Source: Escherichia phage vB_EcoM_ESCO10
Sequence record: OM386655.1
DNA length: 64,000 nt
Strand: one strand, 5' to 3'
Part shown: positions 5,153 to 57,531 of the stretch, one piece after another
Position numbering within the stretch: position 1 is the stretch's first letter
Layout of the letters: each line of letters starts with the position of its first letter
Program-made: the position numbers and the translations under genes
Notes under the pieces: generated by a model
Databases searched by the model: none
Seen by the model: only the letters and a program-made list of their open reading frames with translations
Told to the model about the DNA's origin: nothing

Positions 5153-5198
5153 GTTAGTTGATAGGTCTATAGTATCTCAACCATAGACCGTTGTAAAC
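5153..5198 (-). promoter_or_regulatory. T4-type early promoter (conserved ~45-bp element, -35 GTTTAC)
   Basis: member of a 13-copy repeat family; minus strand reads GTTTAC-spacer-ATACTATAGACCTATCAAC, directly upstream of sp. Confidence 0.55.
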
Positions 5199-5352
5199 AA
5201 CTATTTTTCGCCTTCGATAGAATAACCTGTTAATTTGTAATATTCTGATCGGGCTTCAACCAGGGCCAATTCAATATCACTAACACAAATGCCTTCTGGG
5301 TTTTTAAGTTGGGTTTCGACAACCAAAATAAGGTATTTTAAAATGTCTTCCA

Positions 5353-5493
5353 TTATTCCTCGCCTTCATGTTTATGAGCAAATTCTTCGTATTCACTGTC
5401 ACAGTCTAAACACGTGGCATTGTCCCAAGCATCAAATACCGCTTGGTCTTCACAAACAGAACAACCACATACTACACATTCAAATTCTTCCAT
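5353..5493 (-). CDS. small Cys-rich zinc-ribbon-like protein (~45 aa; absent from the ORF track)
   Basis: hand translation gives MEEFECVVCGCSVCEDQAVFDAWDNATCLDCDSEYEEFAHKHEGEE; start lies immediately after the dmd stop. Confidence 0.4.
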   Translation of the reverse strand: MEEFECVVCGCSVCEDQAVFDAWDNATCLDCDSEYEEFAHKHEGEE

Positions 5494-5697
5494 TTAGATT
5501 TCCTCTTTACGCCAATCAGATTCAAAAACTTTTACATCGTTGACAAAGGCTTTTACCAACGCTTTATTGATTTCAGCAAATTGCGAAGTAGCCCATTCAA
5601 TCATACTTTGGTCACTAACATCCAGCGCGGTTTCTTTGGTAAACATATTACCATTTTCAAACCAACCAATAAACACTACGTTCTCTAATTTGTACAT
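5494..5697 (-). CDS. dmd: Dmd (discriminator of mRNA degradation; antitoxin against RnlA/LsoA)
   Basis: 67 aa; VVFIGWFENGNMFTKE...WATSQFAEINKALVKAF matches T4 Dmd from memory. Confidence 0.8.
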   Translation of the reverse strand: MYKLENVVFIGWFENGNMFTKETALDVSDQSMIEWATSQFAEINKALVKAFVNDVKVFESDWRKEEI

Positions 5698-6015
5698 TTA
5701 GATTTCCTCACAGAACGCCCATTCAGCATGATATACTGTAGCGCCTTTAGTATCATTTAAACAAACCACATCTACCGGAGCAATTACACGATATAAACGA
5801 GGTTCTCCTCCCACTGAACGTGCTGCACGTCCAGCATAAATCTTAGCCAAACCGATATTTTCAGTAAAGAACACACGATTAAGGTTTTTCTTACGACCGG
5901 TTTCAGACAGAACTCCTGTTTCCTCAGGAGGACAAAGCATATTACTGATATTAGCAACACTACAACTTCCGTGATAATACACTTTATATTCTGCTTTACA
6001 GTCGATGGTTTTCAT
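5698..6015 (-). CDS. hypothetical protein (105 aa from ATG; track start is a TTG extension)
   Basis: ATG with RBS GGAGAA at 6013-6015; the track N-terminus MENK is translation of the conserved upstream leader. Confidence 0.5.
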   Translation of the reverse strand: MKTIDCKAEYKVYYHGSCSVANISNMLCPPEETGVLSETGRKKNLNRVFFTENIGLAKIYAGRAARSVGGEPRLYRVIAPVDVVCLNDTKGATVYHAEWAFCEEI

Positions 6016-6027
6016 TTTGTTCTCCAA

Positions 6028-6068
6028 GTTGATAGGTCTATAGTATCATGTTTATAGACGTTGTAAAC
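6028..6068 (-). promoter_or_regulatory. T4-type early promoter (repeat family member)
   Basis: GTTTAC ... ATACTATAGACCTATCAAC on minus strand. Confidence 0.55.
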
Positions 6069-6085
6069 CCCTAAAAACAAAAAAA

Positions 6086-6099
6086 GGAGCCGAAGCTCC
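6086..6099 (-). terminator. intrinsic terminator (GGAGC-UUCG-GCUCC + U-run) after gene 41
   Basis: inverted repeat with UUCG loop immediately after the gp41 stop, followed by T-run on minus strand. Confidence 0.6.
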
Positions 6100-7539
6100 T
6101 TAAAATTTGATAGATGCTGCTAAATCGTCCAAATCGCTTCTATTAACACGTGTCTGGCGATTGACCTCTGCTTGGCGATTCATTTCACCCGTAGCCTCAC
6201 GAACAGTATTCACTGGACCTGGATTGCTATCGTCTTCAACTTCATACCAACGTTGGTTACCTTTCTTAACACCAATCTTAAATTTGTTGTAGTAGCTCTT
6301 ATCACCATATCGAGATTTAAGCTGCTTAACCATCTGCATACCCATCTGAGCAAACTCTTCTGTCTCGACTACGCCTAACATAAAGTCAGCAGTATGAGCA
6401 ATACCAAAGGATTCAGCAATATCAGCCATGTCAATTTCGGCTGCAACGTTCGCACCACGAGTAGTCTGGGCTGCCGTCCACAACAACAATTTCTTCTCTA
6501 CTGCAAGACCGCGAAGTTCTTCTGCAACCATCTTAATTAAACCATAACTGTTTTCAGAGAAAACTTTAGTACGAGATGAAGCACAGATGGCCAAGTAGTC
6601 AACGATAACGACCTGCGGAACAAAGTTTTGTTTCAGTTTGTATTCGTTTAATAATGCACGGAATGTATCGGCATTAGCGCCGCCTGTAGGATACTGTTTA
6701 ATCTTTAAACGACCCAAAGTAGCAGTTGAACGCCACTTATCCATCTTAGCTTTATATTCAGGCCATGAGACATGTCCATCATCAATATCATCTAGTGATA
6801 CATCCAGAAGATTAGCATCGATACGCTTAGCGCATACTTCCTCAGCCATCTCCATGGAGATATAAAGAACATCGTAACCAGATTGAAGGTAATCAGCAGC
6901 CAATGAACATAGCCCAAGAGACTTACCTACGTTTGTTCCTGCCAACAATACGTTTTCAGTACCAAACTCTGCTCCACCCTTAGTAATCTTATTCAGAATA
7001 TTAAGACGGAATGGAATTTTACGGGCTTTGTCCGAATAACTTTTAAAACGTTCTTCATAGTCATCCATCCAATCGTGGCCTAACTCAGAATCGAAACAAA
7101 TCGATAATGCATCACGCATGATATCTGGGATAGCACCAATACCTGGGAGTTTTCTATTTTGTTGCTCAACCGGAAGGTCGGCATTAGTTTGAATTTCAAT
7201 GATTTTTGAAGTAGCATTATACATCGCTGCCTTCTGAACATATTTCTCTGTCTCTTTAACCAACCATTCTTGGTCTTCAGGGCCAGCGTTCAGTGAACTT
7301 AAAAGCTCTTTAGCTCCTTGGTGTTCGACTTCTGAAAGGGGGGTGTTATCTAATGCAATACTCAAAGCATTTTTAGAAGGCACCGCATTATATTCATTGA
7401 CGTGTTTTTTGATTTCTTTGAAAAGGGTCTTTGCTGGACCCTGGTCAAAATAAGAATCATTCATATAAGGCCAGACCTTAGTGAAATAATCACTATTGCC
7501 TAGCAGTTGAGCCAAAATAGTTTCTACCACTTCCACCAC
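6100..7539 (-). CDS. 41: replicative DNA helicase gp41 (DnaB-like)
   Basis: 479 aa; near-colinear with T4 gp41 from memory; Walker A GTNVGKS. Confidence 0.95.
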   Translation of the reverse strand: MVEVVETILAQLLGNSDYFTKVWPYMNDSYFDQGPAKTLFKEIKKHVNEYNAVPSKNALSIALDNTPLSEVEHQGAKELLSSLNAGPEDQEWLVKETEKYVQKAAMYNATSKIIEIQTNADLPVEQQNRKLPGIGAIPDIMRDALSICFDSELGHDWMDDYEERFKSYSDKARKIPFRLNILNKITKGGAEFGTENVLLAGTNVGKSLGLCSLAADYLQSGYDVLYISMEMAEEVCAKRIDANLLDVSLDDIDDGHVSWPEYKAKMDKWRSTATLGRLKIKQYPTGGANADTFRALLNEYKLKQNFVPQVVIVDYLAICASSRTKVFSENSYGLIKMVAEELRGLAVEKKLLLWTAAQTTRGANVAAEIDMADIAESFGIAHTADFMLGVVETEEFAQMGMQMVKQLKSRYGDKSYYNKFKIGVKKGNQRWYEVEDDSNPGPVNTVREATGEMNRQAEVNRQTRVNRSDLDDLAASIKF

Positions 7540-7859
7540 CTCTTAGATTTAATTTTATCCAGTTCTTCTTGTATTTGCATTGTAACACATTTTTCTACAT
7601 GAAGCGCTAGCTCTTCTTTTCGGTCTTCGGAAGGTGTTCCGAAATCAACCGACACTTTTCCATCTTTCTCAATAATAATATTCATCACATAAACGATGTG
7701 AGCAGTGCCATCGGGTAAAGTAAGCATAATTTCCTGCTTAACAGAACCCATTGACTTACGGATTATATCTAGTGATTTCTCATAATACAGAGGGTCACTA
7801 GGACCCTCTTCAGTATCTTTAACAAAATTATCTAAATCAGATAAATCAGTCATGGTCAC
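7524..7859 (-). CDS. 40: gp40-like head vertex assembly chaperone
   Basis: 111 aa; position between 41 and uvsX as in T4. Confidence 0.6.
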   Translation of the reverse strand: MTMTDLSDLDNFVKDTEEGPSDPLYYEKSLDIIRKSMGSVKQEIMLTLPDGTAHIVYVMNIIIEKDGKVSVDFGTPSEDRKEELALHVEKCVTMQIQEELDKIKSKRWWKW

Positions 7860-13983: not shown

Positions 13984-14220
13984 TCATTGTTTAACAATAA
14001 TGATTTGTGCATTTGATTTACGTTCAGCGGCGATCGCCCAGATTAAAGCCACTACCCAACCAATCATCGTCCAACCCAACAGGAGATTAAGGAAGAAAAT
14101 TCCTACATTACTACGAGTGCCTCGCAGAAGAGCTAGAATCCATGGTAAGAAGTAACCAATGAACATAACGACCAGAGAACCGAATCCTAAAACACCTGCA
14201 CTAACGATTAAAGCTTCCAT
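13984..14220 (-). CDS. small two-TM membrane protein, Imm-like (superinfection immunity) by position
   Basis: 78 aa; two hydrophobic helices; located between genes 42 and 43 as imm in T4. Confidence 0.5.
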   Translation of the reverse strand: MEALIVSAGVLGFGSLVVMFIGYFLPWILALLRGTRSNVGIFFLNLLLGWTMIGWVVALIWAIAAERKSNAQIIIVKQ

Positions 14221-14238
14221 TGTAATTTCCTCTTAAGT

Positions 14239-14282
14239 AGTTGTTAGGAAGGATAATACCACGTTCCGTGTGGTATGTAAAC
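14239..14282 (-). promoter_or_regulatory. early-promoter-like element (variant of the repeat family)
   Basis: GTTTAC plus TATTAT-type -10 on minus strand, upstream of the imm-like gene. Confidence 0.45.
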
Positions 14283-25670: not shown

Positions 25671-25996
25671 TTCGCAGCCTTAACAATTTTCAGGTCAACG
25701 AATTTTTTCTTACGTTGGTTTTTCATACGTCGAATAGTTTTATCTGTGATTTCACCCGGGTGCCAAGCTTTAGATTCAACACCAAAGGCAGCAACGTCAA
25801 ACTCATCAAGGATATATTGAACCAGGATTTCACGAATACCGTTATGGCCAATTTTTTGGTCTTTAGAGCGCATGATTGGTAACAGTTCAGCAACCCATTG
25901 GTCAAGAATCTGAGGAGTTACAAAGCCAGTTTTCATCAGTTCGTTAACTTTATCGAAAGCGAAAGAGTTCAGTACGTTTTTGATTGCTTGTGACAT
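25667..25996 (-). CDS. hypothetical protein (109 aa from ATG)
   Basis: start at MSQAIKNV with RBS GAGGAAATTATT; N-terminal leader shared with the gene at 32687..33532. Confidence 0.5.
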   Translation of the reverse strand: MSQAIKNVLNSFAFDKVNELMKTGFVTPQILDQWVAELLPIMRSKDQKIGHNGIREILVQYILDEFDVAAFGVESKAWHPGEITDKTIRRMKNQRKKKFVDLKIVKAAK

Positions 25997-26064
25997 AATA
26001 ATTTCCTCAGTTTTAAATTTATAATCCATAGGACCATTATACTCTGGTCCCAAGAGTTTGTAAA

Positions 26065-26265
26065 CTATTTTTGTTTTAGTGCACCTTTCCAGCCTTCATA
26101 CATCATTCCAGCGGAAAGTAATAAAGCTCCTGAACAGCTTGAATATTTGTGATTCCAAAACCAATTCAGAAAAACTTCGTCATCAATACCTTGAGCCATC
26201 ATATTTTCAAAGAACTGACGACGAGCTTCAGCAATTCGCTGCGATAATTTAGATTCAGGATTCAT
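26065..26265 (-). CDS. hypothetical small protein (66 aa)
   Basis: ORF. Confidence 0.4.
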   Translation of the reverse strand: MNPESKLSQRIAEARRQFFENMMAQGIDDEVFLNWFWNHKYSSCSGALLLSAGMMYEGWKGALKQK

Positions 26266-26475
26266 TTAAATTTTCCAGTTACCGTTTTCATCAATGAATT
26301 TAACCCAGTCATTTACTGACCACTTGGTGGTATCGCCTTTTGGAGCAGAATTTAAAGTATACAGTCCTTGCTTAAAAAGCATTCGTTTGATATTCATATT
26401 TTCCTCAGCTATAACGATAACATTCGTTTGATTTACGTTTTGCAACTCGATGAGAAGTATTGTAATCAGGTTCAT
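26266..26475 (-). CDS. hypothetical small protein (69 aa)
   Basis: ORF. Confidence 0.35.
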   Translation of the reverse strand: MNLITILLIELQNVNQTNVIVIAEENMNIKRMLFKQGLYTLNSAPKGDTTKWSVNDWVKFIDENGNWKI

Positions 26476-26698
26476 CGTCGTTGTAAACGTCTTTTTTCAG
26501 CTTTCTCACTTCTTTACGAAGTTGGCGATTCATTTCATTCTTAACTTCAGAATCGACACCGCCCATACGTTTCCACTTGTCAGAACGGAAGATATTTTCT
26601 TCAACTCGTTCCTGACTTACACCGTCAGGTGCTTTACGACGTCCTGAATAACAAAAATCTTTTACAGACAATTCTTTACGACGGATAGTTTTACCCAT
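26405..26698 (-). CDS. hypothetical basic protein (97 aa)
   Basis: ORF; Lys/Arg-rich. Confidence 0.4.
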   Translation of the reverse strand: MGKTIRRKELSVKDFCYSGRRKAPDGVSQERVEENIFRSDKWKRMGGVDSEVKNEMNRQLRKEVRKLKKDVYNDDEPDYNTSHRVAKRKSNECYRYS

Positions 26699-26955: not shown

Positions 26956-27134
26956 GATTTAATTTCCTTTGCTACTGAACAAAACACAGAACGGTCACAC
27001 ACCATCAACGGGGCATCAGGCAGGCTCAAAGGTTGATACCAGACATCCAGATTTGTAACCTTAGTTACCTGGACAGGATAGCCGTTTACTGAATAATACT
27101 GGTCAACTTTAATTTCTTTATCTTGAATAGTCAT
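26952..27134 (-). CDS. hypothetical small protein (60 aa)
   Basis: ORF, ATGA-coupled. Confidence 0.35.
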   Translation of the reverse strand: MTIQDKEIKVDQYYSVNGYPVQVTKVTNLDVWYQPLSLPDAPLMVCDRSVFCSVAKEIKS

Positions 27135-27193
27135 AATGTTCTCCTCATGTGTTGATAGGATAGACTATAACACACAAGGAGAGGAAGTAAACA

Positions 27194-30540: not shown

Positions 30541-31544
30541 TTCAGCAGCTCCAGAGCGTGTTCAAGACGGTCTAAACGATTAGTAGACTCTTCCCAAAGT
30601 TTCTTGGCAGCAGTATATTGTCCAGTCAGTTTTTTGTTAATGGCAAGGGCGTCTTTATACGCTTTTTCCAGAGCAATTACTTCCGGCAACTTGGATTTAG
30701 TAATTGGCGTAGGGGCCATGATAGGGCTATTCAAGTCATTAATCAAGTCTTCTAATGTAGCAGGCTCTTTATCAGTGTTCACAATTTCCTCACATTTTTC
30801 TTGGTAAATTTCGGCATCAGTTTTTGGAACAGCGCATTTGATTTCGCAAACTTTTACTAGGACTTCATATCCTTTCCATCCACGGGAATGGTTGATTTCT
30901 TGAGTCTCATATTTCTCTACCGTATCCATCAGGGCTAAAGCCTGTTCGATGGTATTCAGAGTATCATAAGAAATATCTTGGTACTTTACAACTTCCGCTT
31001 CATCTTTAGGTTTCCGGTTTGGTGACCAGATAATAGAAATAAGCACCCTTCCTTTATAAGCATTTGTTTTAATCATGCAATTCGCCAATGGGTGGATAGT
31101 ACGACCATCACCGGCGACTACGGTTTTAGTGGCTGCTTTGAGAATTAATGCAGAGTTAGCCTTAAATTCAGCGGCCCAACGTTGTGGAAATAGGCCACTA
31201 AGGTCCATACCTTTAATTTTGATATACCCTTTTAAAACATCACCGAACCATTTGTAGTTAACATGAGCCGGACTACGATATTTCTCTTTGCCAAAGTCGG
31301 AAAGGAGGTCCTTATTGACCAAGCGTGAAAGCAAACGAGACCCTTTAAAAGTTTCAATGATATCAGAAATAGACAAACGGCCCGCAATCTTTTCGATTTC
31401 AGATTTAAAACACCGTGACAAATCTTCATCAATTTGGTCAACCCATTTACTGATATTAGAAACTATTACCTCATACGGCGTTAATGGCCGTGTATTGGTA
31501 GTAATATACGTGGTAAAGGCTTTGATATATTCGTTACGGGTCAT
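30537..31544 (-). CDS. hypothetical protein (335 aa from ATG)
   Basis: start MTRNEYIKAF with RBS GAGGAG, directly downstream of an early promoter. Confidence 0.55.
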   Translation of the reverse strand: MTRNEYIKAFTTYITTNTRPLTPYEVIVSNISKWVDQIDEDLSRCFKSEIEKIAGRLSISDIIETFKGSRLLSRLVNKDLLSDFGKEKYRSPAHVNYKWFGDVLKGYIKIKGMDLSGLFPQRWAAEFKANSALILKAATKTVVAGDGRTIHPLANCMIKTNAYKGRVLISIIWSPNRKPKDEAEVVKYQDISYDTLNTIEQALALMDTVEKYETQEINHSRGWKGYEVLVKVCEIKCAVPKTDAEIYQEKCEEIVNTDKEPATLEDLINDLNSPIMAPTPITKSKLPEVIALEKAYKDALAINKKLTGQYTAAKKLWEESTNRLDRLEHALELLK

Positions 31545-31560
31545 GATATTCTCCTCAGTA

Positions 31561-31602
31561 GTTGATAAAAGGATTATACTCCATCCGTCCTTGGATGTAA
31601 AC
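31561..31602 (-). promoter_or_regulatory. T4-type early promoter (GTTTAC ... GAGTATAAT)
   Basis: repeat family variant carrying a canonical TATAAT. Confidence 0.55.
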
Positions 31603-33595: not shown

Positions 33596-34120
33596 TTATG
33601 CGAGAACCGTCTTTAAACGCTCTTCAAATTTCTGAAGCAGAGCTTGGCGTTCAGCTCGTTGTGATTTGTACTGCTCGATACGTCCTGAAGTGAGGGCGTA
33701 CTGTTCGTTTACTGATTCCCGCATAAATTCAGGAATTTCTTTACAAGCTTTGATTTCGTCAAACTTGTCAATAACAGCTTGTTGTTCAGCAATCATATTA
33801 TCGAAATAAGCGATATCTGATTTAACGTTTGCCAGGTCAGATTCGGTAGGCATTAAACGTTTGTTACGTTCAGCTTGATAAGCTTGGTTGGTTTCACGAC
33901 TCCAGTGAAGAGTACGTTTTTTGTTAGTATTTTTATAGAGCTCTACAATACCTACTGAATCGATGATAGCAATCCAGTTCCAACGGCTTTTGTAAATCTC
34001 TCCTCCAGATACGGTAATCTCATTTCCACAAGCAACATCGTTAAAGAACTTGCTTTGTTTTTCAGATTTGAAATTACCGTTATTAAAATTAATCAGTGAA
34101 AAAATATCTTTAGCGTTCAT
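33596..34120 (-). CDS. hypothetical protein (174 aa)
   Basis: ORF with RBS GGAGG, downstream of an early promoter. Confidence 0.5.
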   Translation of the reverse strand: MNAKDIFSLINFNNGNFKSEKQSKFFNDVACGNEITVSGGEIYKSRWNWIAIIDSVGIVELYKNTNKKRTLHWSRETNQAYQAERNKRLMPTESDLANVKSDIAYFDNMIAEQQAVIDKFDEIKACKEIPEFMRESVNEQYALTSGRIEQYKSQRAERQALLQKFEERLKTVLA

Positions 34121-34133
34121 GTTAACCTCCAGT

Positions 34134-34174
34134 AGTTGATAGGTCTATAGTATCATTCCTACTGGAGATGTAAA
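34134..34174 (-). promoter_or_regulatory. T4-type early promoter (repeat family)
   Basis: GTTTAC ... ATACTATAGACCTATCAAC. Confidence 0.55.
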
Positions 34175-34177
34175 CAA

Positions 34178-34528: not shown

Positions 34529-35509
34529 TTATTTTAAAAGTGTAACTTCAGCAATTTCAGCCCAATCATTAGAATCAGTAGCAATGAAATCAGCCAAATA
34601 GAGGGCGGTACGCAATGAAACATTACGCAAACGTGATACATTAGCCTTCATCCATGAGAGTGCCTGGTAAGTCTGAGCGTCAGTCAGACCACGCTTCTGC
34701 ATCATATCTGTAGACAGGATAACGTCTTCAACACGAACCATAATCTCTTCGTTAGAGTGAACACCCAGGTCTAAGTAAACTGAACGTGATACTAAAGCTT
34801 GGAGATGCGGAGAAAGTTTAGTTCCACGTTCCAATTCACGGTCAATATCAACGTTAGTGATGAATACGACGGTGCCTTCATACTCGAATTCTTTATCGAT
34901 ATTTTTATCATCAAGATAAGAACTTGAAGTGCTCCAGCATACCTTACGTTTCTCACCGGTGTCCAATGCCGCTTTCAGAAGGTTCAGGATATCCATGTCA
35001 GAGAATACATCAACATCATCGATAAGAAGAACACTATTAGGGCCGCGGTTATTCCAAAGCTGCTCGTAAAGACCGATTCCACTAATCTTTCCGTTGATTG
35101 ATTTATATTCGATAGTTTCATTTTCGTGGGCATTCTGTAATGCTTTATCCAATGAATATGTTTTACCAATACCTGCGGCACCAGAGATGATAAGGGAACG
35201 AATTTTACCATCGATGATTCCATTAGTCATCATGTTCATTACTTTAAAACGTTTGTTGATGCGGTGTTTCATTTCGTCCTGGGATTCAGTTAAGACGGCA
35301 GGGGTTTCAACACCTTCAGTTTCGATATCAGATTTGAACACCCATACACCACGCTCTACACCATCAATCTGAACAAAGACCTTACCATCGCCGAGGTGGG
35401 CTTCTGATTCATGAATTTTATTAGGGAACCAGGTTTTACCTGAACTCATGAACGTACCAGAGATTTCGTTACCGCGGTAGATGCCTTTGTTGATTTTGAT
35501 AGTTAACAT
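34529..35509 (-). CDS. AAA+/P-loop ATPase (326 aa from ATG)
   Basis: Walker A GAAGIGKT, Walker B VLLIDDVD; ATG with RBS GAAGGA; track start is a GTG extension. Confidence 0.65.
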   Translation of the reverse strand: MLTIKINKGIYRGNEISGTFMSSGKTWFPNKIHESEAHLGDGKVFVQIDGVERGVWVFKSDIETEGVETPAVLTESQDEMKHRINKRFKVMNMMTNGIIDGKIRSLIISGAAGIGKTYSLDKALQNAHENETIEYKSINGKISGIGLYEQLWNNRGPNSVLLIDDVDVFSDMDILNLLKAALDTGEKRKVCWSTSSSYLDDKNIDKEFEYEGTVVFITNVDIDRELERGTKLSPHLQALVSRSVYLDLGVHSNEEIMVRVEDVILSTDMMQKRGLTDAQTYQALSWMKANVSRLRNVSLRTALYLADFIATDSNDWAEIAEVTLLK

Positions 35510-35533
35510 TTTATTATCCTTCACTCATTTGTT

Positions 35534-35573
35534 TTGATAGGTCTATCTTAACACGATTAATCAGGTTGTAAAC
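35534..35573 (-). promoter_or_regulatory. T4-type early promoter (repeat family variant)
   Basis: GTTTAC plus conserved downstream block. Confidence 0.5.
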
Positions 35574-35597: not shown

Positions 35598-35617
35598 AAG
35601 GAACCCGAAGGTTCCTT
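35598..35617 (-). terminator. intrinsic terminator (AAGGAACC-UUCG-GGUUCCUU + U-run)
   Basis: 8-bp perfect hairpin with UUCG loop, just after the stop of 35621..35905. Confidence 0.6.
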
Positions 35618-39129: not shown

Positions 39130-39366
39130 TCACCAGTATTTGTTGATGGTAGAAATTAATTCTTGGGCTTGAGTAGTCTTCAGCTTACACCCACATCCAT
39201 TTAATGTATCTTTAAGGAGCCATGGCTCCTTGAGCTCGTCCTTTTCTAGACGAATTCTGTATCCTCGGTAATCAGCAAAGATACTTCGGTCATCAAATAT
39301 CTTAATCTCAAGGAGACGGTTATTGATTTCGTATTCCAACGAAACCATAGTACTTGTAAGTTTCAT
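39130..39366 (-). CDS. hypothetical protein (78 aa)
   Basis: RBS GAGGAG; directly downstream of an early promoter. Confidence 0.45.
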   Translation of the reverse strand: MKLTSTMVSLEYEINNRLLEIKIFDDRSIFADYRGYRIRLEKDELKEPWLLKDTLNGCGCKLKTTQAQELISTINKYW

Positions 39367-39381
39367 AATATTCTCCTCATT

Positions 39382-39422
39382 AGTTGATAGGTCTATAGTA
39401 TCATGTTCCTAGAGGATGTAAA
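39382..39422 (-). promoter_or_regulatory. T4-type early promoter (repeat family)
   Basis: GTTTAC ... ATACTATAGACCTATCAAC. Confidence 0.55.
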
Positions 39423-39434
39423 CACCTAAACGAA

Positions 39435-39460
39435 AAAAGGTCCCACCGAAGTGAGACCTT
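39435..39460 (-). terminator. intrinsic terminator hairpin with UUCG loop
   Basis: AAAGGTCCCAC-CGAA-GTGAGACCTTT (one wobble) after the stop of 39464..39850. Confidence 0.5.
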
Positions 39461-39463
39461 TGA

Positions 39464-40506: not shown

Positions 40507-41079
40507 TCAACTCGTTATTTCTATCCAATGCTTCCTGCACAATGACACGTAAGAATCGTTGCCACCTATAGAAACTTGGTCGCCGTCCTTAATTGCGATA
40601 CCATTTTGGATACGAGCTGTCATAGTAGCCTTACGTCCACAATGGCACACACCTTTGTACTCAACGAGTTTATCTGCTGTAGCTAATAATTCAGCAGAGC
40701 CAGGAAACAGTTTACCCTGAAAATCAGTTCTTAGACCGTAACACATGACCGGTATATTATAATTATCTACTATCTTTGCTAATTGTTTTATTTGCAAAGG
40801 TTCTAAGAACTGTGCTTCATCCACAAACACACAGTGGATATCTTTTTGAGATTCAGCCCAACGATAGAACTCGTATAGGTCCATATCTGGAGTCACTGCA
40901 TTAGCCTCTTGGCTAATCCCTATACGAGACGAAATTCTATGGCTTGATTCTCTATTATCTATCGCAGGCTTTAAAAGGAGTACACCCATACCACGTTCTT
41001 TGTAGTTATGGGCCGCCGTTAGCAATGAAGAGGTCTTCCCAGAATTCATCGCAGCATAATGGAAATAAAGTTGGGCCAT
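40507..41079 (-). CDS. tk: thymidine kinase
   Basis: 190 aa; P-loop MNSGKTS and C-terminal zinc motif CHCGRKA...SLCRKH; matches T4 Tk. Confidence 0.9.
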   Translation of the reverse strand: MAQLYFHYAAMNSGKTSSLLTAAHNYKERGMGVLLLKPAIDNRESSHRISSRIGISQEANAVTPDMDLYEFYRWAESQKDIHCVFVDEAQFLEPLQIKQLAKIVDNYNIPVMCYGLRTDFQGKLFPGSAELLATADKLVEYKGVCHCGRKATMTARIQNGIAIKDGDQVSIGGNDSYVSLCRKHWIEITS

Positions 41080-42827: not shown

Positions 42828-43286
42828 TTAAAGATAGATTACTTTAGTGCTCGTTTTACCTTCTAAACGTTTAGAGTTAACAAATGCCATACGACATTTT
42901 AATGAATATCCTTTATCAGGATGTTTACGATCTACAGTCATACCTAACCATAAGGTTTTATCGGTAATCTCGAGACGCAGTGGACGATACACTTTACCTG
43001 GGACAATTTCAGATTCTACATCAGGCATAGGTTCCTGGATTAAAAATTCATGGATTTCTTTAACATGGTTATGGAGTTGCTTGAATAAAGCAAAAACGTA
43101 TTTTTCGTCAATTTCACGTTGGATAGCACGGTCCAATAGGTGATTAGAGTACTTAATAAAGAAAGCTGGGACTCCACTCTTAATGGCGGCTTTTTTGATG
43201 GATGTATTCAGTTCACGAAATTCGGTTTCGAACTGACGACGTAATTTGTTGCGGCGGATGAATACTTCTGAATTAATTTCTGACAT
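42828..43286 (-). CDS. regB: endoribonuclease RegB
   Basis: 152 aa; EVFIRRNKLRR.FE.EFR...HLLDRAIQREIDE matches T4 RegB. Confidence 0.85.
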   Translation of the reverse strand: MSEINSEVFIRRNKLRRQFETEFRELNTSIKKAAIKSGVPAFFIKYSNHLLDRAIQREIDEKYVFALFKQLHNHVKEIHEFLIQEPMPDVESEIVPGKVYRPLRLEITDKTLWLGMTVDRKHPDKGYSLKCRMAFVNSKRLEGKTSTKVIYL

Positions 43287-43301
43287 TTTGTTTCTCCTGT
43301 A

Positions 43302-43342
43302 GTTGATAGGTTTATAGTATCATGCCTACAGGAGATGTAAAC
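43302..43342 (-). promoter_or_regulatory. T4-type early promoter (repeat family)
   Basis: GTTTAC ... ATACTATAAACCTATCAAC upstream of regB. Confidence 0.55.
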
Positions 43343-45329: not shown

Positions 45330-45689
45330 TTAAAGATGGTCAAGGGCTGGGTTATGAGGTTTTTCTGCTTTAGTAGTGTTTTTATGCCAATCTGATTTAG
45401 AAACACGGATGGCATCAGCGCCATAAGAACTCTTAAGGAGACCTTTTTTATTGTACACACTTATTGAAGTAAGAGAATCACCATTCCATGTAGCATGAAT
45501 GAAGTTAGATTTAGATTTAAGTTCTTTAGCCAAGCTCTGGTTAGTGGCCATGGAAGCAAAGTCTATACCTGTAACTTTAAAAACTTCAGATGGGTTCAGC
45601 CCTTCTTTAGCCTTAGCCAATTGTTCAGGAGACATACCTTCGTTAATGCGCTGAGTAGATTCAGTAATAAATTGTTTGTAAGTTTTCAT
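45330..45689 (-). CDS. internal protein (IP) with capsid targeting sequence
   Basis: N-terminus MKTYKQFITES. Confidence 0.65.
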   Translation of the reverse strand: MKTYKQFITESTQRINEGMSPEQLAKAKEGLNPSEVFKVTGIDFASMATNQSLAKELKSKSNFIHATWNGDSLTSISVYNKKGLLKSSYGADAIRVSKSDWHKNTTKAEKPHNPALDHL

Positions 45690-45731
45690 ATTATTCCTTA
45701 AGTTGATAGAAGTATTCTATCACGGATTTAA

Positions 45732-46148
45732 TTAAGCGTAAATAGCCTTACCATAATGTTTGTACCAGGTAGGGCGTTGTGCAATTTTTTCGTCTAAACG
45801 GGCTTGTGATATAGCGATAGAAGCTTCATGGGGAATATAATCACCACGGAATTCCTGAGGAATATCACTAATATCCTGGACTGTAGTATCCTTGATATTA
45901 AACCCGCGTTTTAGACATTCGGCTATAAGCTCAATTTGACGTTTACGTAAGAACTCAAGCTTATCGTAAAAGAATGTAACATGACCCGTGCCAAGGATAA
46001 AACCTGAGCTGATTTTAAAATCACGAACACGTTTACCATTAGCAACATGCTTACGAACTGCACTGAAAACACGTGGTAATTCACGATATTCAGCCATTAA
46101 GTGTTGGTCAGCCAATTCAGATACTAAAGTAAGGTTGATACGAGTCAT
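45732..46148 (-). CDS. denV: endonuclease V (pyrimidine-dimer DNA glycosylase) DenV
   Basis: 138 aa from [26 protein letters not shown] (near-identical to T4 DenV from memory); track ORF is extended 59 codons upstream; RBS AGGAG. Confidence 0.9.
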
Positions 46149-46162
46149 TTTTAATCTCCTGT

Positions 46163-46205
46163 GTCGGTATGAGAGTATCATATCACAACTACAGGAGATG
46201 TAAAC
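46163..46205 (-). promoter_or_regulatory. early-promoter-like element (divergent member of repeat family)
   Basis: GTTTAC with conserved spacer; located between e and denV. Confidence 0.45.
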
Positions 46206-46209
46206 AACT

Positions 46210-46704
46210 TTATAGATTTTTATACGCGTCCCAAGTACCAGTTCTAAACGTTGAAATGACTCGCTTAGCTCGGTTGGGGGTCTGTTTGTACCAACGAGAC
46301 TGTGCCAGGTTAACTGCGGCCTCATCCCAACGTTTTTGTTGGAGCATACGAAGAGAGTTAGTAAATCCTGCTACACCAGCTTCACCCATTTGGAAGACCA
46401 TATTAATTAGTGCGCAACGACGAACTTCGTCAAGCACATCATAAACAGGTTTCAATTTAGGATTACGCAGAATAGCTCTACGAGCATTTTCCACTGAACG
46501 ATTAAAGAGTTGTTCTGCTTCAGTCATTGTAATACGACCATTACAAACTCGACCCATAAGTTTATCAAGTTCAGCACGAGCAACATCTTTAGAAGGATTC
46601 TTGGTTATCAATTGACCGATGCCAATAGTCCAATAACCTTCGGTGTCTTTATAAAGATTTAAATCAAGACCTTCGTCTTGACGTAACATATCAAAAATAT
46701 CCAT
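46210..46704 (-). CDS. e: endolysin (T4 lysozyme)
   Basis: 164 aa; colinear with T4 lysozyme including catalytic E11 and D20 context and the C-terminal [19 protein letters not shown]. Confidence 0.95.
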
Positions 46705-46705
46705 A

Positions 46706-46729
46706 ATACCTCCTGAGTATAGGAGGTAT
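46706..46729 (-). promoter_or_regulatory. SD-sequestering hairpin in the gene e leader, with late-promoter-like AATAAATA just upstream
   Basis: inverted repeat ATACCTCCT / AGGAGGTAT; the 3' arm is the Shine-Dalgarno and the ATG follows 2 nt later. Confidence 0.6.
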
Positions 46730-46738
46730 TTATTATTC

Positions 46739-48706: not shown

Positions 48707-48919
48707 TTACTTTTTATTGAAAAAGTACATTTTACCTTTAGGAGATAAAGATACACGAAGTGCGTTACCGATACCAACTGAACATTTAACCAGGTCGGCA
48801 GATTTCAATTCACCGAACGCTTGACGAAGGTCACCATCACGAGTGTTAACCATCAGGCATTTAGCACCAGCTGCACGAACTTCGTTTAACATGTTGATTG
48901 CTTGGTTAGAAAGTTTCAT
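48707..48919 (-). CDS. hypothetical small protein (70 aa from ATG)
   Basis: RBS GGAGAA; track start is a leader extension. Confidence 0.4.
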   Translation of the reverse strand: MKLSNQAINMLNEVRAAGAKCLMVNTRDGDLRQAFGELKSADLVKCSVGIGNALRVSLSPKGKMYFFNKK

Positions 48920-48943
48920 TTTATTCTCCATTTCACTCTGTTG

Positions 48944-48984
48944 TTTTGATAGGTCTATAGTATCACACCTATAGACCTTGTACA
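48944..48984 (-). promoter_or_regulatory. early-promoter-like element (-35 GTACAC variant)
   Basis: repeat family member with conserved downstream block. Confidence 0.45.
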
Positions 48985-48997
48985 CTGTTTTGTGCAT

Positions 48998-49957
48998 TTA
49001 TTTTGTGAAAGGACGAATTAAATGATGGTTATCTTGGAACCGCTTGATGTAATCATTTTCACCTAAAGCCTTATACATATTCACTACAGCTTGATAGTTT
49101 TCCCACGCGTATTCGCGGAACCATCCGGAAGTGATAGAGGTACACACTTTCTCAAGAGCCATATAGAAACTTGTGGCCGCCGGAATATTGAAGTCATTAG
49201 GAACCTGTGAACGTTCTAGCGCTAAGACACAAGTTTCTTCGTATACACCAGCCAGTTTAATAGCTTCAGGCAAAGCTTCAAACTTCTCACGAGAGGTCAT
49301 GACTTCAGAGCCTTCTTTAATATAAAAGGTATACGCCGGACGGCCTGCTAGCGCGACGGCTTCATGGATAGAGTCGTGGTCCAGAGTATAAATTGTGTCA
49401 TTAAAGAATGAAGATTTGTTAACGTCCAGTTTAGGATGAGAATAGCTCAACGTTTCTTTCTGACGTTGCAGCATGATTTCTTGGAGCTCTTCGTTCAGGG
49501 TTACACCCTTATTACGAAGGTATTTTATATGGGACATCGTCTTCAGAAAGAATGGGTTGTTCTTTAGGAAACGATGAGAGGTTTTAATAGCCAGACAGAT
49601 ATCAGGAGTAGCCCAATAGAAACCTGTCATACGATCTTTCTTAATATGATTTTCAGCATATTTCAGAAGACGATAGCTTGAGGTGATGTCTTCGTCTTGA
49701 AGCTCATCGGTGATTTCTCGTACGTTAGTAAGGGCCCGTACAATATAAGCTTCGAAATAGGTTTCTTTACCGTTGTGCATGCATTTAAAAGCTTGGACAT
49801 CAGGGTTGTCTACGTGTACATGAGCGCCGAACATCTGCGCTTTAAAGTTATTCCATGACCCTTGGTCAGCAATGAAATCCCAATCAGAATTTTCGATATA
49901 TTTACTTTCGATCAAACCTGCGTGGTGTAGAGCACGAGAACCAATAACTAACATCAT
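48998..49957 (-). CDS. hypothetical protein (319 aa)
   Basis: large ORF of unknown function. Confidence 0.55.
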   Translation of the reverse strand: MMLVIGSRALHHAGLIESKYIENSDWDFIADQGSWNNFKAQMFGAHVHVDNPDVQAFKCMHNGKETYFEAYIVRALTNVREITDELQDEDITSSYRLLKYAENHIKKDRMTGFYWATPDICLAIKTSHRFLKNNPFFLKTMSHIKYLRNKGVTLNEELQEIMLQRQKETLSYSHPKLDVNKSSFFNDTIYTLDHDSIHEAVALAGRPAYTFYIKEGSEVMTSREKFEALPEAIKLAGVYEETCVLALERSQVPNDFNIPAATSFYMALEKVCTSITSGWFREYAWENYQAVVNMYKALGENDYIKRFQDNHHLIRPFTK

Positions 49958-53032: not shown

Positions 53033-53626
53033 TTACTTAAGTGAATTGATGTAGTCTTCGATATCAGCTGAAGTCGTATCCATTCCAACTTGAGGGCCTT
53101 TAAACGTTTCTACACGCATCAGGGTATCTTCAATATCAATCTTGGTCAGTGCAGCGATTTCAACAACATCATCGGCAGTCGCAATACCAAGGGCAGCCAT
53201 ATTACGAGTTTCACGGATGTATTCCAATTTAACCGCTAGTTCCTGGCGAGAGTCATCAAGTTCCTTGACCTTCAATTTGATTTCGTTACGCATCTCGATA
53301 TAATCGTCAGCTTTCTTACGAAGTTGAGTAGCTGTTCGACGATAAAGGAGACCGAGTTTAGCATGTACCTGGACATCGGCACCTTCAGCAATCAATTTAC
53401 GGATTTCACGTTCTTTAGAACTAGCCAGTTGGTCCTTTTCGTTAGCGAGTTCACGAATACGTTTTTCTTCACTTACAGACTTAACATGAGCAGTCTGGAG
53501 TTCAGTGATTTTATCAATCAGAGTAGAAGCAGCTTTAGTGTATTGGTCTTCAATTGACAGGTTCTGAGCCATTGCGGTGCCAAGTTTAGAGCGGATGAAT
53601 TCAACGATTTTCTTTAAAGTGTTCAT
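53033..53626 (-). CDS. coiled-coil protein (198 aa from ATG), PspA/IM30-like?
   Basis: start MNTLKK with RBS GAAGGAAA; long charged heptad-like helices; family assignment tentative. Confidence 0.45.
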
Positions 53627-53702
53627 AGTATTTCCTTCAGTTAGATGGCATTTTGTAATCCATGAGGGCATTATACCCTGCCCTCGGAGGTTTGTAAACA
53701 TT

Positions 53703-54101
53703 TTATTTCATTTTTGCTAGGCAGATTTCATTGGCTTCCCATTGAGCTTGCTTAATAATAGCTTTGGACACAGGAACCTTTTGACCATAAGTGTTTGACG
53801 TCGAGAGAACAATATATTTGTTTGCCTCATTATGCCATCCCCGTGATTTTTCGCCATGAGTACCTTTAATTACAGCTGACACCTCAACAGAGCAGCCATC
53901 AGAACTAATCTTGGTGTCTACAATCCATTCATTTCTCTCGGCGGCTTCAATTTCCGATCTCATTTTTTCTTCATACACGGCAGCCCAATCAGTTTGTGTC
54001 AATCTTAAACTAAGAGCTTTCTTTAATTCTTTGGCAGCTTTTTGTTGTTCAGGTGTTAATGAATTATATAACTCTCGCATTTCTTTATCTTCGATATTCA
54101 T
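53703..54101 (-). CDS. hypothetical protein (132 aa)
   Basis: ORF. Confidence 0.45.
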
Positions 54102-54158
54102 TATGTTCTCCTCAAATTATGGGCTCATAATATCTCAATCATGAGCCCATGTAAACAA

Positions 54159-54432
54159 TTATTTCATATTATTGAAATATTCTTCTGCGATTTCATCGTT
54201 ATCATGGTAAATTTTAGTAGACAATTTAACATAACCTTCAGCAGCAAACATATTAACCACAACCTTTACAGTATACCACTGACCGTCGTCATTACCCATT
54301 ACTGCATAGGTTTCAAATATGGGATGGTCTTCACCAACAACTTTAATATCGTTAACAGTAGCACCAAATTCTTCCGGAACACATTTCATAAAGAAATTAA
54401 ACAGTTCACCGTAATTATCCATTTCATTCTCC
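54159..54432 (-). CDS. hypothetical acidic protein (87 aa from ATG)
   Basis: ATG after GGAGAA; track start is a TTG leader extension. Confidence 0.45.
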
Positions 54433-54464
54433 AAGTTGTTTTTCTGTATCAGTAGTTGATAGTT

Positions 54465-54506
54465 GTATAGTACCATGGAAGAACAGGGATGTAAACAGTT
54501 TTGTGA
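54465..54506 (-). promoter_or_regulatory. T4-type early promoter (repeat family variant)
   Basis: GTTTAC ... TACTATACAACTATCAAC. Confidence 0.5.
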
Positions 54507-54656: not shown

Positions 54657-54664
54657 TAAGAATG

Positions 54665-55126: not shown

Positions 55127-55154
55127 TATTGTTTCCTGTGATAATTAACTTATC

Positions 55155-55162: not shown

Positions 55163-55166
55163 CCAA

Positions 55167-55889: not shown

Positions 55890-55908
55890 AATATTATTCT
55901 CATTAATT

Positions 55909-55985
55909 TGGTCGGGGTGAAAGGATTCTAACCTTTAACCTGCGGTTTAGAGGACCGCTACTCTATACAATTGAGTTACACCCCG
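55909..55985 (-). tRNA. tRNA-Arg (anticodon UCU)
   Basis: hand-folded cloverleaf: acceptor CGGGGTG/CACCCCG, D-stem ACTC/GAGT, anticodon stem GCGGT/ACCGC with loop CCUCUAA, T-stem AAAGG/CCTTT, encoded CCA. Confidence 0.75.
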
Positions 55986-55989
55986 TGTT

Positions 55990-56064
55990 TGGTGGCCCTT
56001 GCTGGTTTCGATCCAGCTACCTATCAGTTATGAGCTGACAGCTCTCCCATTGAGCTAAAGGGCC
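55990..56064 (-). tRNA. tRNA with CAU anticodon (Met, or Ile2 if lysidine-modified)
   Basis: hand-folded cloverleaf: acceptor GGCCCTT/AAGGGCC, anticodon loop CUCAUAA, T-stem GCTGG/CCAGC, encoded CCA; 4 nt from tRNA-Arg. Confidence 0.75.
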
Positions 56065-56071
56065 TTAATTA

Positions 56072-56491: not shown

Positions 56492-56603
56492 ATTTTCCTC
56501 ATTAGTTGATTATTCTATTATGAAAGGCTCTTTGAGGGAAGAACCTTTGGTAATAGAGGGTACTTATTAATAATAACACACTGCTCTTAAAGCATATTAC
56601 TTG

Positions 56604-56984
56604 TTAACCTTCGTCAACAATAGTATGGGTGTTGGCATTAACAATCTGCCACCAGTCAAAACGGTTGGAACCATATTGAGGCTTATTCTCGTTTTCTTTA
56701 ATGATATCACGCAGTTCGTCTTCAGTAGCAGCTTTTGCAATTAAATCTGCATAACCGCCACGGGGATAATAGCTATCGCCAGCAAAGAGTAAAAAGTTTG
56801 TTTTAATATTCTTGAATTCTTCAAGAGTAATAACCGTTCCAGATGGTTGAACAATATCTACGTAACTATATCCTAATTTCTGGGCTTCATTTACTGCTTC
56901 AAGCAGGGTGTCATGGGCCCATCCGATTTGACAATCCGGTTTTTCAGATGGGTTGGCTTGATAATCTGCGTACACTTTATACAT
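56604..56984 (-). CDS. hypothetical protein (126 aa from ATG)
   Basis: start MYKVYADYQ with RBS AAGGTGA. Confidence 0.5.
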   Translation of the reverse strand: MYKVYADYQANPSEKPDCQIGWAHDTLLEAVNEAQKLGYSYVDIVQPSGTVITLEEFKNIKTNFLLFAGDSYYPRGGYADLIAKAATEDELRDIIKENENKPQYGSNRFDWWQIVNANTHTIVDEG

Positions 56985-56985
56985 T

Positions 56986-57171
56986 TTACTCACCTTTAGA
57001 GATTTTATCCATAACGAAAGAGATTGAACCAATTAAAAATGCCACTACTAAAGAGATTGTATTCTCAGAAGTTGAAAGCAAATTCAACATGAATCCTGCA
57101 AACATACTAAAACCAAAAGCAGTAATAGCGACCAGTGCAGTAACATTTCTAATTAATTCACAACGTTTCAT
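56986..57171 (-). CDS. small membrane protein (61 aa from ATG)
   Basis: ATG after GGAGAA; two TM helices. Confidence 0.45.
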   Translation of the reverse strand: MKRCELIRNVTALVAITAFGFSMFAGFMLNLLSTSENTISLVVAFLIGSISFVMDKISKGE

Positions 57172-57193
57172 TTTATTCTCCAATCACTCATTT

Positions 57194-57238
57194 GTTTTGA
57201 TAGGGCTATAGTATCATCACTAGAGCCCGTTGTAAACA
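57194..57238 (-). promoter_or_regulatory. T4-type early promoter (repeat family)
   Basis: GTTTAC ... ATACTATAGCCCTATCAAAAC. Confidence 0.55.
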
Positions 57239-57240
57239 AT

Positions 57241-57465
57241 TTATTCAACACCAGCTGCTTTCAAAAGTTTTTTAAGATTGGCTGTGCCCTGAGCAGAAAA
57301 CGTGACCTTGCCACCTTTTTCACTGATAGAACCAACCAATTTGGCAAGTTTATCATTAGGAATTTTTTTAAAATCGGCCAATGTTCCATCAAAGGTTTTT
57401 GAAACAAAAGGCAGTTCGTCTTCGTGTCTTTTAGCTTCTGTGATAAATTCTTGATATGTTTTCAT
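57241..57465 (-). CDS. small internal-protein-like protein with capsid targeting sequence (74 aa from ATG)
   Basis: N-terminus MKTYQEFITEAK from internal ATG; track start is a leader extension. Confidence 0.55.
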   Translation of the reverse strand: MKTYQEFITEAKRHEDELPFVSKTFDGTLADFKKIPNDKLAKLVGSISEKGGKVTFSAQGTANLKKLLKAAGVE

Positions 57466-57490
57466 TTTGATTTCCATTTGGTTGGTTTGT

Positions 57491-57531
57491 TTTGATAGGG
57501 TAATAGTATCATATTTATAAATGCTGTAAAC
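57491..57531 (-). promoter_or_regulatory. T4-type early promoter (repeat family)
   Basis: GTTTAC ... ATACTATTACCCTATCAAAAC. Confidence 0.5.

Follow-up and report, generated by a model that had tools for sequence, protein, structure and literature searches.

The window analysed here is a stretch of 64,000 nucleotides (nt) from Escherichia phage vB_EcoM_ESCO10 (OM386655.1), an early region of a Dhakavirus in which a repeated intergenic cassette, with the build of a T4-type early promoter and often with a predicted RNA hairpin, precedes many of the genes. Its sequence shares 95.5% identity with Escherichia phage vB_EcoM-VR5 and 87–91% with JS98, IME08, QL01, and other Dhakavirus members. Based on the VR5 and JS98 annotations, its T4-type early region includes modA.x, soc, 56, 61, 41, uvsX, 43, regA, 62, 44, 45, 46, 47, 55, 49, nrdC, mobD, rI, tk, vs, regB (42828–43286), denV, ip, e, nudE, tRNA, 57, 1, 3, 2, and 4, all encoded on the minus strand and followed by the late genes 53 and 5 on the plus strand. 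Genes were called on the minus strand and the calls are approximate; greedy calling of open reading frames (ORFs) on both strands gave spurious plus-strand genes.

A preliminary description of the window listed 13 copies of the repeat, and at each of these positions a minus-strand GTTTAC (in one copy the variant GTGTAC), a 17–18-nt gap, and a TAnnnT box were found, with a GGAG-type Shine-Dalgarno sequence (SD) and an ATG within a few tens of bases after the TAnnnT. The coordinates in that description correspond to the low-coordinate 3′ end of each element; each cassette is identified here by the position at which the G of its GTTTAC falls. The count of 13 was too low, as a relaxed scan combined with inspection identified 19 good minus-strand cassettes, six of which had been overlooked (Table 1). 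The pattern GTTTAC-N16–18-TANNNT occurred 21 times in the window compared to 2.93 expected, a count reached in none of 100 shuffles, with 19 of the 21 matches on the minus strand, and the 19-mer ATACTATAGACCTATCAAC occurred eight times (≤3 mismatches) compared to 0.01 expected. Two further matches (26488 and 29053), in or at the end of ORFs, are doubtful as cassettes. Both are perfect matches to GTTTAC-N17-TA(C/T)AAT on the minus strand (26459–26488 and 29024–29053), and the first, which has an A-rich tract upstream and lies ~100 nt from a breakpoint with VR5, may be a real internal promoter.

All cassettes share the same layout of GTTTACA, a 16/17-nt spacer, TAnnnT, aGACCTATCAAc, a GGAG SD, and an ATG. 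The placement just upstream of gene starts and the conservation beyond the two hexamers, both noted previously, hold for the enlarged set: the ATG is 53–74 nt past the G of GTTTAC, the stop codon of the upstream gene often falls 4–10 nt before the -35, and the aligned consensus reads a.aaAa.tGTTTACAtc ... catGaTA.tATa..cCtATcaA ... aGGAgAatAaaATG, with the 3′ tail after cCtATcaA also written aGGAgAatAaaATGaaa. Read as a promoter on the minus strand, the cassette would begin with an A-rich UP-like tract, often containing the upstream stop codon, followed by GTTTACA, a spacer usually ending in TGn, the TAnnnT -10, a C-rich discriminator (aGACCT), a predicted start at the A of ATCAAC, and a leader of approximately 17–35 nt that carries the GGAG. 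The start site (+1) was set by rule as the seventh nt after the -10.

Several lines of evidence bear on this promoter assignment. The -35 is an exact GTTTAC in 17 of the 19 cassettes (GTGTAC at 48985 and ATTTAC at 45743), and a TAnnnT -10 is present in all 19, 16–17 bp past TTTACA, with an extended -10 (TGn) in 14. The nine nt before the -35 contain a mean of 4.2 A compared to 2.8 expected (consensus a.aaAa.t), with the UP-like tract weak in the four cassettes that have the T-run of a terminator in front, and the aligned consensus has CC at -3/-2. This consensus matches that published for T4-like early promoters (PMC1524935, Nolan et al. 2006; PMC2988021, Hinton 2010), for which the described features are GTTTAC at -36 to -31, an A-rich tract at -40 to -44, TGn, a -10, and C at -3 to -1 (PMC1524935), and which have been termed ‘uber’ UP/-35/TGn/-10 promoters with additional consensus regions (PMC2988021). 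All 19 cassettes are co-oriented with orthologues of T4 early genes, including regB, denV, imm, sp, ip, nrdC.x, 55.x, and e.x. Between orthologous cassettes of the window and five relatives, divergence was 2.6% in the -35 and 3.5% in the -10, compared to 12% in the spacer and 14% at third codon positions, as would be anticipated if the promoters are functional. In T4 itself (AF158101, 60500–67500), the sequence upstream of denV, AGTTTACATCTCCTGTAGGTATGATACTATAGACCTATCAACTACAGGAGA, matches the VR5 denV cassette at all 51 nt, although the two phages differ at the level of the genus, and the regB, ipII, and ipIII promoters have the same build as the cassettes; T4 regB has been described as having a typical early promoter. 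The GenBank record of T4 annotates no promoters. Based on these sequence features and the orthology to T4, the repeats are very probably T4-type early promoters of a composite kind, used by the unmodified sigma-70 RNA polymerase of the host and firing right after infection, and the earlier reading of the two hexamers as a T4-type early promoter agrees with every sequence property that could be tested. A generic scan for sigma-70 promoters and terminators did not discriminate (70 sites compared to 61 in shuffles); only the T4-specific pattern did.

Compared to the T4 early promoters, which share the GTTTAC(A/T), the A-rich tract at approximately -40 to -44, the TGn, the TAnnnT, the C at -3 to -1, and the unidirectional early genes downstream, the Dhakavirus cassettes differ in two respects. 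The commonest -10 is TACTAT, not TATAAT, and the group has one variant of the -10, discriminator, and start, TACTATAGACCTATCAA, in 12–17 exact copies per genome. An exact scan of IMG/VR for this variant returned 73 stretches, mostly belonging to eight or nine complete Dhakavirus-like genomes with that number of copies each.

A complementarity between the spacer and the sequence downstream, absent from the preliminary description, adds a second layer to the cassettes. When the segment from the -35 to the ATG was folded with only the spacer shuffled, the hairpin was lost (12 of 19 cassettes at p ≤ 0.05; Stouffer z = -12.2; Fisher p = 2e-13). Most of the hairpins fall into two classes (Table 1). 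In class A, the partner of the spacer is the end of the -10 together with the discriminator (for example, GGTCTATAG/CTATAGACC), while in class B an anti-SD directly after the -35 (for example, ATCTCCTGTAG) pairs with CTACAGGAGAT, leaving the -10 and the predicted start in the loop. By geometry, the 5′ arm is within the spacer or ends at approximately -1, and the predicted +1 is in the loop or past the arm. In both classes, the transcript from the cassette’s own promoter would lack this arm, and only RNA arriving from upstream would contain both arms. T4 also provides an example of a hairpin in this position, as ipII has a perfect 14-bp hairpin (TCCTAGAATTGTGA/TCACAATTCTAGGA) across the spacer and -10.

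The arms vary in sequence while the pairing is retained. Pairing between spacers and their own leaders was better than pairing with permuted leaders (p = 0.0006), and three class B arm pairs covary by Watson-Crick pairing on an identical core (CTCCTGTAG/CTACAGGAG, CTCCAGTAG/CTACTGGAG, and CTCCATTAG/CTAATGGAG). Among close orthologues, compensatory changes were found at 53699, where both arms of the helix differ between the window and its relatives (Table 1), and at 54156, where a T-A pair is replaced by C-G through a T·G intermediate, with the compensatory change in phage dhaeg. The same holds for two T4 genes followed across lineages. The regB promoter has a hairpin in all six lineages compared, though with different arms, including TCCTCTTGAC/GTTAAGAGGA in T4, TTCTCCTCTTTATG/CATAAAGAGGAGAA in another lineage, and class A arms (GGGCTAT/ATAGCCC or GGGCCAT/ATGGCCC) in others. 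The denV promoter of ~20 lineages has more than 12 arm variants, with the GGAG nearly always within the 3′ arm and the 5′ arm in one of two places, the spacer or the -10 end plus discriminator (the latter as in GATGTCTTCC/GGAGGACATC or ATGTCCTCCTA/TAGGAGGACAT); when it occupies the -10 end and discriminator, the predicted start is just 3′ of the arm. An RNAalifold analysis of 13 denV leaders with discriminator-to-SD pairing identified compensatory changes in three of eight pairs; several of the sequences were out of register and the support is weak.

Folding predictions for 46 distinct denV and regB promoter-leaders gave a probability that the SD is unpaired of 0.09 in read-through RNA, compared to 0.41 in the promoter-proximal transcript (Wilcoxon p = 1e-10) and 0.30 when the promoter was shuffled (p = 8e-9). 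For the class B sites of the window, the corresponding predictions were 0.00 in read-through RNA and 0.26–0.74, and the read-through values at 46205, 43342, 34175, 27192, and 54496 were 0.00–0.01. Among 22 lineage-distinct denV and regB leaders, folds of the sense strand were more stable than those of the antisense strand by 2.2 kcal/mol (p = 0.018) and contained 27 G·U pairs compared to five, a bias that points to structure in the sense-strand RNA and not in DNA.

Table 1. Probable early-promoter cassettes of the window, with the gene directly 3′ of each and the predicted hairpin; names give the position of the G of GTTTAC. Cassettes added to the preliminary description are marked ‘overlooked earlier’.
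Cassette	Position (strand)	Gene directly 3′	Hairpin class	Arms (5′/3′) or hairpin	Remarks
57531	57463..57531 (-)	internal-head-protein gene, ip8-like (N-terminus MKTYQEF)		no significant hairpin	
57237	57169..57237 (-)	trna.4-like gene	A	GGGCTCTAG/CTATAGCCC	leader GGAGAATAAAATG; synteny breakpoint, ip9 absent
54496	54420..54496 (-)	e.8-like gene			SD predicted paired in read-through RNA; promoter unlike that of four relatives (whole-promoter replacement)
54156	54099..54156 (-)	JS98 orf133-like gene	A	ATGGGCTCATGAT/ATTATGAGCCCAT (13 bp)	overlooked earlier
53699	53624..53699 (-)	e.6	A	GAGGGCA/TGCCCTC (relatives GAGGACA/TGTCCTC)	overlooked earlier; VR5 promoter different
48985	48917..48985 (-)	70-aa ORF	A	GGTCTATAG/CTATAGACC	-35 GTGTAC; leader GGAGAATAAAATG, source of ‘MENKMK’
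46205	46146..46205 (-)	denV	B	ATCTCCTGT/ACAGGAGAT, SD masked	hybrid of ipIII-type upstream part and denV leader; ~1.07–1.09 kb of relatives absent
45743	45687..45743 (-)	internal-protein-like gene (MKTYKQF)			overlooked earlier; -35 ATTTAC; low-coordinate (3′) boundary of denV module
43342	43284..43342 (-)	regB	B	TCTCCTGTAG/CTACAGGAGA	-10 and predicted start in loop
39423	39364..39423 (-)	small ORF, VR5_100-like	B (weak)	TCCTC..TAG/CTA..GAGGA	canonical terminator upstream (39436–39461)
35573	35507..35573 (-)	nrdC.10		no internal hairpin	canonical terminator upstream (35598–35617); synteny breakpoint in 5/5 relatives
34175	34118..34175 (-)	nrdC.8	B	CTCCAGTAG/CTACTGGAG	
31602	31542..31602 (-)	nrdC.4		small hairpin within spacer, CATCC/GGATG	-10 TATAAT
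27192	27132..27192 (-)	55.6-like ORF	B	CTCCTTGTGTG/CACATGAGGAG (11 bp, two G·U pairs)	overlooked earlier
26065	25994..26065 (-)	55.2-like ORF	A	GGACCA/TGGTCC	overlooked earlier
14282	14218..14282 (-)	imm	A	ATACCAC/GTGGTAT	hairpin overlaps -10
6068	6013..6068 (-)	VR5_038-like ORF, before dmd	A	GTCTATA/TATAGAC	terminator directly upstream; VR5 orthologue has class B spacer TTCTCC instead
5198	5138..5198 (-)	sp (spackle)	A	GGTCTAT/ATAGACC	VR5 homology stops exactly at -35
1018	960..1018 (-)	mrh.2-like ORF		no spacer hairpin	overlooked earlier; terminator directly upstream

The combination of promoter cassette, hairpin layer, and occasional crossover points is likely to be the best explanation of the repeats as a whole, though its parts differ in strength. 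For about two thirds of the cassettes, the spacer would serve as a 5′ arm, with the 3′ arm formed by the -10 end and discriminator (class A) or by the SD region (class B), and the cassette’s own transcript would begin inside or just beyond the hairpin. In class B, and with the discriminator-to-SD pairing of other lineages, the ribosome site and the GGAG target of the endoribonuclease RegB would be paired in read-through RNA and free in promoter-proximal RNA. A role in which translation is tied to the gene’s own early promoter, through masking of the SD in read-through RNA, is on balance favoured by these folding models.

Among the closest known counterparts are T4 e, soc, 49, and I-TevI. Long transcripts of these genes have their ribosome site buried in a hairpin, and a translatable RNA is made from a promoter within that hairpin. 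As in these genes, RNA from upstream of a window cassette is predicted to have both arms and to be poorly translated, and a promoter in or after the 5′ arm is predicted to free the ribosome site. The internal promoter of the T4 genes, however, is a late, gp55-dependent TATAAATA that delays expression, whereas the window cassettes are sigma-70 early promoters; with an early rather than a late internal promoter, translation would be restricted to the earliest, promoter-proximal transcripts. The cassettes are thus predicted to work like this family without belonging to it, as the late TATAAATA promoter that characterises its members is not the promoter of their hairpins. The window also contains a hairpin of the T4 type, located just 5′ of gene e (46705–46730, minus strand), in which AATACCTCC-TATACTC-AGGAGGTATT holds the lysozyme SD paired and AATAAATA precedes the hairpin; by its sequence, it corresponds to the e-type block of translation already known, with a late-type promoter inside.

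The cassettes also resemble the promoter-early stem-loops (PeSLs) described from RB49/phi1, PST/T4, and nt-1/KVP40 (Arbiol 2010, Comeau 2014), which are intergenic, AT-rich tracts with an early promoter, a stem-loop, an SD, and an ATG, with stem-loops that lie between the -35 and -10 or over the -10 and with indels or replacements between close relatives. An early promoter and a stable stem-loop within one intergenic cassette that ends with SD and ATG were likewise found in the window (stem-loops at p ≤ 0.05 in 12 of the 19 cassettes; four cassettes with a canonical hairpin and T-run terminator upstream), and JS98 had already been mentioned as having PeSL-like sequences. There are three differences. 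None of the five published stem-loop positions has a helix from the spacer or discriminator to the SD; the published function is termination, from the one stem-loop tested (PMC2839356), while the window hairpins do not have U-tracts; and the stems of RB49 are composed of a G-run and a C-run, while the arms in the window are anti-SD (CTCC...) or GGTCTATAG. No description of a promoter-embedded anti-SD arm at early promoters was found in the PeSL papers, reviews of T4 transcription and post-transcriptional control, or Nolan et al., with older subscription literature (for example, the 1989 compilation of T4 early promoters) outside of the search, such that priority for this feature is uncertain. 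The promoters are already known as a class; the anti-SD arm, conserved by covariation across T4-like genera, is the part for which no description was found.

Cassettes without a hairpin seem to be insulated by other means, namely canonical terminators just upstream of the -35. Internal hairpins are weakest in the four cassettes with a canonical terminator directly upstream (6068, 35573, 39423, and 1018; Mann-Whitney p = 0.03), and in jumbo relatives a terminator hairpin lies on the -35 of the denV promoter with the SD unmasked. An insulation role fits both the terminator-preceded cassettes with weak hairpins and the jumbo relatives without SD masking. A wider version of this role is plausible rather than probable: many T4-like early promoters, including those of T4 denV and regB, may carry an anti-SD arm in the spacer or discriminator, making the gene translatable and cleavable by RegB only on RNA from its own promoter and silent on read-through RNA, and this would be a general insulator, interchangeable with a terminator, that lets cassettes shuffle without a change in expression. 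If the hairpin layer is correct, each gene would be insulated from its upstream neighbours by either a terminator or a promoter-embedded anti-SD arm, and the fast yet non-random evolution of the spacers would be explained. This rule is directly testable in T4 at denV and regB, where the genetic and transcript tools exist.

A number of observations weigh against the hairpin reading. The class A hairpins do not touch the SD, so that masking leaves the function of this class unexplained, and regB has class A or class B depending on lineage, such that the function common to both could differ from SD masking. In five or six of the 19 cassettes, no hairpin reached significance. Single changes that break pairs were found in close orthologues at 34175 (JS98 and dhaeg) and 46205 (dhaeg), and for the 19 window cassettes the sense and antisense folds were equally stable, with no asymmetry. 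A ribosome terminating at the upstream stop codon, 10–20 nt before the 5′ arm, might open the hairpin. The start sites, on which the geometry depends, are inferred from the usual 7-nt distance. Lastly, the compared phages are related and phylogenetically non-independent, and the p-values overstate the independence of the comparisons.

The preliminary description had also proposed that the repeats are potential sites of recombination. An alignment to five relatives (VR5, JS98, FB, E33, and dhaeg) identified 76 clusters of homology breakpoints. Cassette footprints account for 3% of the window and contained 12 of these clusters (binomial p = 2e-6); a breakpoint touched 10 of the 19 cassettes. The clearest case is the denV locus, where, relative to JS98, 1,074 bp (the ipIII–orf114 interval) are missing from the window and 43 nt at 46181–46223 can be aligned with the sequence on either side of this interval, a hallmark of recombination between two promoter repeats that deletes the DNA between them. 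The denV cassette of the window has e/ipIII-type upstream sequence (ACGCGTATAAAAATCTATAAAGTTGTTTAC) joined to the denV leader, and the order of denV and the ip-like gene differs from that of VR5. For mini-circles formed between neighbouring cassettes, as described for the PeSLs, this hybrid cassette is the sole indirect indication. A spacer or whole promoter was exchanged at 6068 (class A in the window and class B in VR5), 53699 (VR5), 54496 (window relative to the rest), and 57237 (E33). As direct repeats of 45–60 bp, the cassettes would now and then be crossover points at which genes are deleted, swapped, or given a new promoter, and they mark swap points of modules such as the internal-protein genes and denV. 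At denV/ipIII, deletion by repeat exchange is shown at the level of the alignment. Elsewhere the proposal stands only in part: breakpoints concentrate at gene junctions generally, and the enrichment at cassettes over other junctions is weak and not significant by Fisher tests (odds ratio 2.0, p = 0.14; 3.2, p = 0.06 for gaps ≥35 nt), which tells against the crossover component of the composite explanation. The cassettes are best described as occasional crossover sites, as the PeSL papers propose; the evidence for a general hot-spot effect is modest and no such effect is claimed.

Recombination could alternatively be the main source of the extended similarity, with the cassettes acting as mobile or gene-converting linkers (PeSL-type shuffling or mini-circles) that are homogenised by exchange rather than by selection on each base. 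The many exact copies of TACTATAGACCTATCAA per Dhakavirus genome would fit, as only one copy, at denV, was found in the 7 kb of T4 examined, and so would the mosaic cassettes and whole-promoter replacements between close relatives, the hybrid denV cassette with its deletion of ~1.07 kb, the cassettes that coincide with breakpoints, and the many orthologue alignments that end at the -35. However, 64 of the 76 breakpoint clusters are elsewhere, the odds ratios relative to other junctions reach only 2–3, and low divergence among orthologues is confined to the -35 and -10 hexamers, as function predicts. Homogenisation as the principal cause therefore appears rather unlikely, and recombination is better seen as an added consequence of the repeats than as an alternative to their role as promoters.

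The stem-loops could also be terminators or attenuators, as proposed for the PeSLs, that damp transcription from upstream and leave the cassette’s own promoter dominant, with the pairing to the SD incidental. In the PeSL study, read-through into lacZ was reduced by an RB49/phi1 stem-loop to roughly the same extent as by rrnB T1 (PMC2839356), and an activity of this kind would be consistent with the weak or missing internal hairpins where a canonical terminator precedes the cassette, with the terminator on the denV -35 of the jumbo relatives, with the lack of SD contact in class A, and with the substitution of class A and B for each other at regB. Against this, no U-run follows any class A or B hairpin (TATCAAC, ATGGATT, and similar sequences are found instead), the class B loops of ~23 nt would make poor terminators, and the 3′ arm is positioned exactly on the GGAG in over 12 variants of the arms that arose independently, which termination does not need. 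As an account of the hairpins in general, termination is doubtful, slightly more so than homogenisation is for the repeats, though it is a live alternative to SD masking, especially for class A.

Far less probable is that the inverted repeats act at the DNA level, either by forming cruciforms or by serving as palindromic operators of a phage protein, for example in the shut-off of early promoters or as targets of endonuclease VII. The mechanism by which T4 early promoters are shut off is stated in the literature to be unknown (PMC2988021), the authors of the PeSL papers speculated on a recombination protein that binds the stem-loops, and the comparison of sense and antisense folds was symmetric when limited to the window. 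The arms, however, covary rather than being conserved, which leaves no fixed site for a protein; the denV and regB leaders have the excess of G·U pairs and the greater stability in the sense strand described above; loops of up to 23 nt disfavour cruciform extrusion; and the 3′ arm follows the SD, an RNA signal. A chance origin in an AT-rich genome, or a coding leader with genuine MENKMK extensions, could draw on the undiscriminating generic sigma-70 scan and on the record of VR5_124, annotated with a start that runs through the promoter, but is refuted by the counts of the specific pattern and the 19-mer, by a GGAG at the normal SD distance (6–8 nt) before the second ATG with a TTG in first position in some copies, and by an upstream frame that would need translation through the -35 and -10 boxes, leaving it practically without credit.

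The recurrent MENKMK N-termini of the preliminary description do occur in the list of ORFs, as mechanical extensions and not as proteins. An in-frame ATG or TTG over the GGAG produces them (ATG/TTG-GAG-AAT-AAA-ATG-AAA), and they were rejected as real N-termini, with the GGAG assigned as the SD and the second ATG as the start. At 48917–49000, an in-frame ATG upstream of the -35 lets the ORF run through the whole promoter (MHKTVYKVYRCDTIDLSKQQSEMENKMK...), and the annotated start of VR5_124 (296–586 of the VR5 locus compared), upstream of the -35, is probably an over-extended gene call. Though promoters of this type are routine, they are worth annotating, as they mark the early transcription units of the Dhakavirus and reveal starts that have been mis-called where ORFs are extended through a promoter.

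The same part of the leader includes candidate RegB sites. The leaders GGAGAATAAAATG of 48985 (48920–48932) and 57237 (57172–57184) and GGAGAACAAAATG of 6068 (6016–6028) fit GGAGRAYARAA, the published target consensus of the RegB/S1 endoribonuclease in T4 early mRNAs. These putative sites would account for the last part of the conserved block, from which ‘MENKMK’ derives, and leave the promoter unexplained. Structured RNA is known to shield GGAG from RegB, and the T4 denV SD has been reported as RegB-resistant; with the predicted hairpins, the GGAG would be exposed to RegB only on RNA from the cassette’s own promoter.

Late promoter sequences were found at two further sites. The T4 late-promoter consensus TATAAATA is located inside the early-promoter spacer of cassette 57531 (57512–57519, minus strand; GGTCTATAAATATGA in the FB orthologue), which suggests overlapping early and late promoters for this internal-head-protein gene, the product of which is needed in heads. 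A second TATAAATA (1324–1331, minus strand) precedes the soc start by ~35 nt, where a late promoter is expected, soc being a late gene within the early region.

Differences in gene content from the relatives were also observed outside of the cassettes. An Rfam search of the window returned two tRNAs and nothing else; these are tRNA-Arg(TCT) and tRNA-Met(CAT) (55909–56064), between which JS98 and dhaeg add a tRNA-Asn. Nowhere is the window more rearranged than on either side of this tRNA region. At approximately 41064–41076, VR5 carries 736 more bases, which its annotation assigns to a site-specific intron-like DNA endonuclease located between tk and tk.2. This homing-endonuclease gene is missing from the window, and other relatives have different endonuclease insertions elsewhere.

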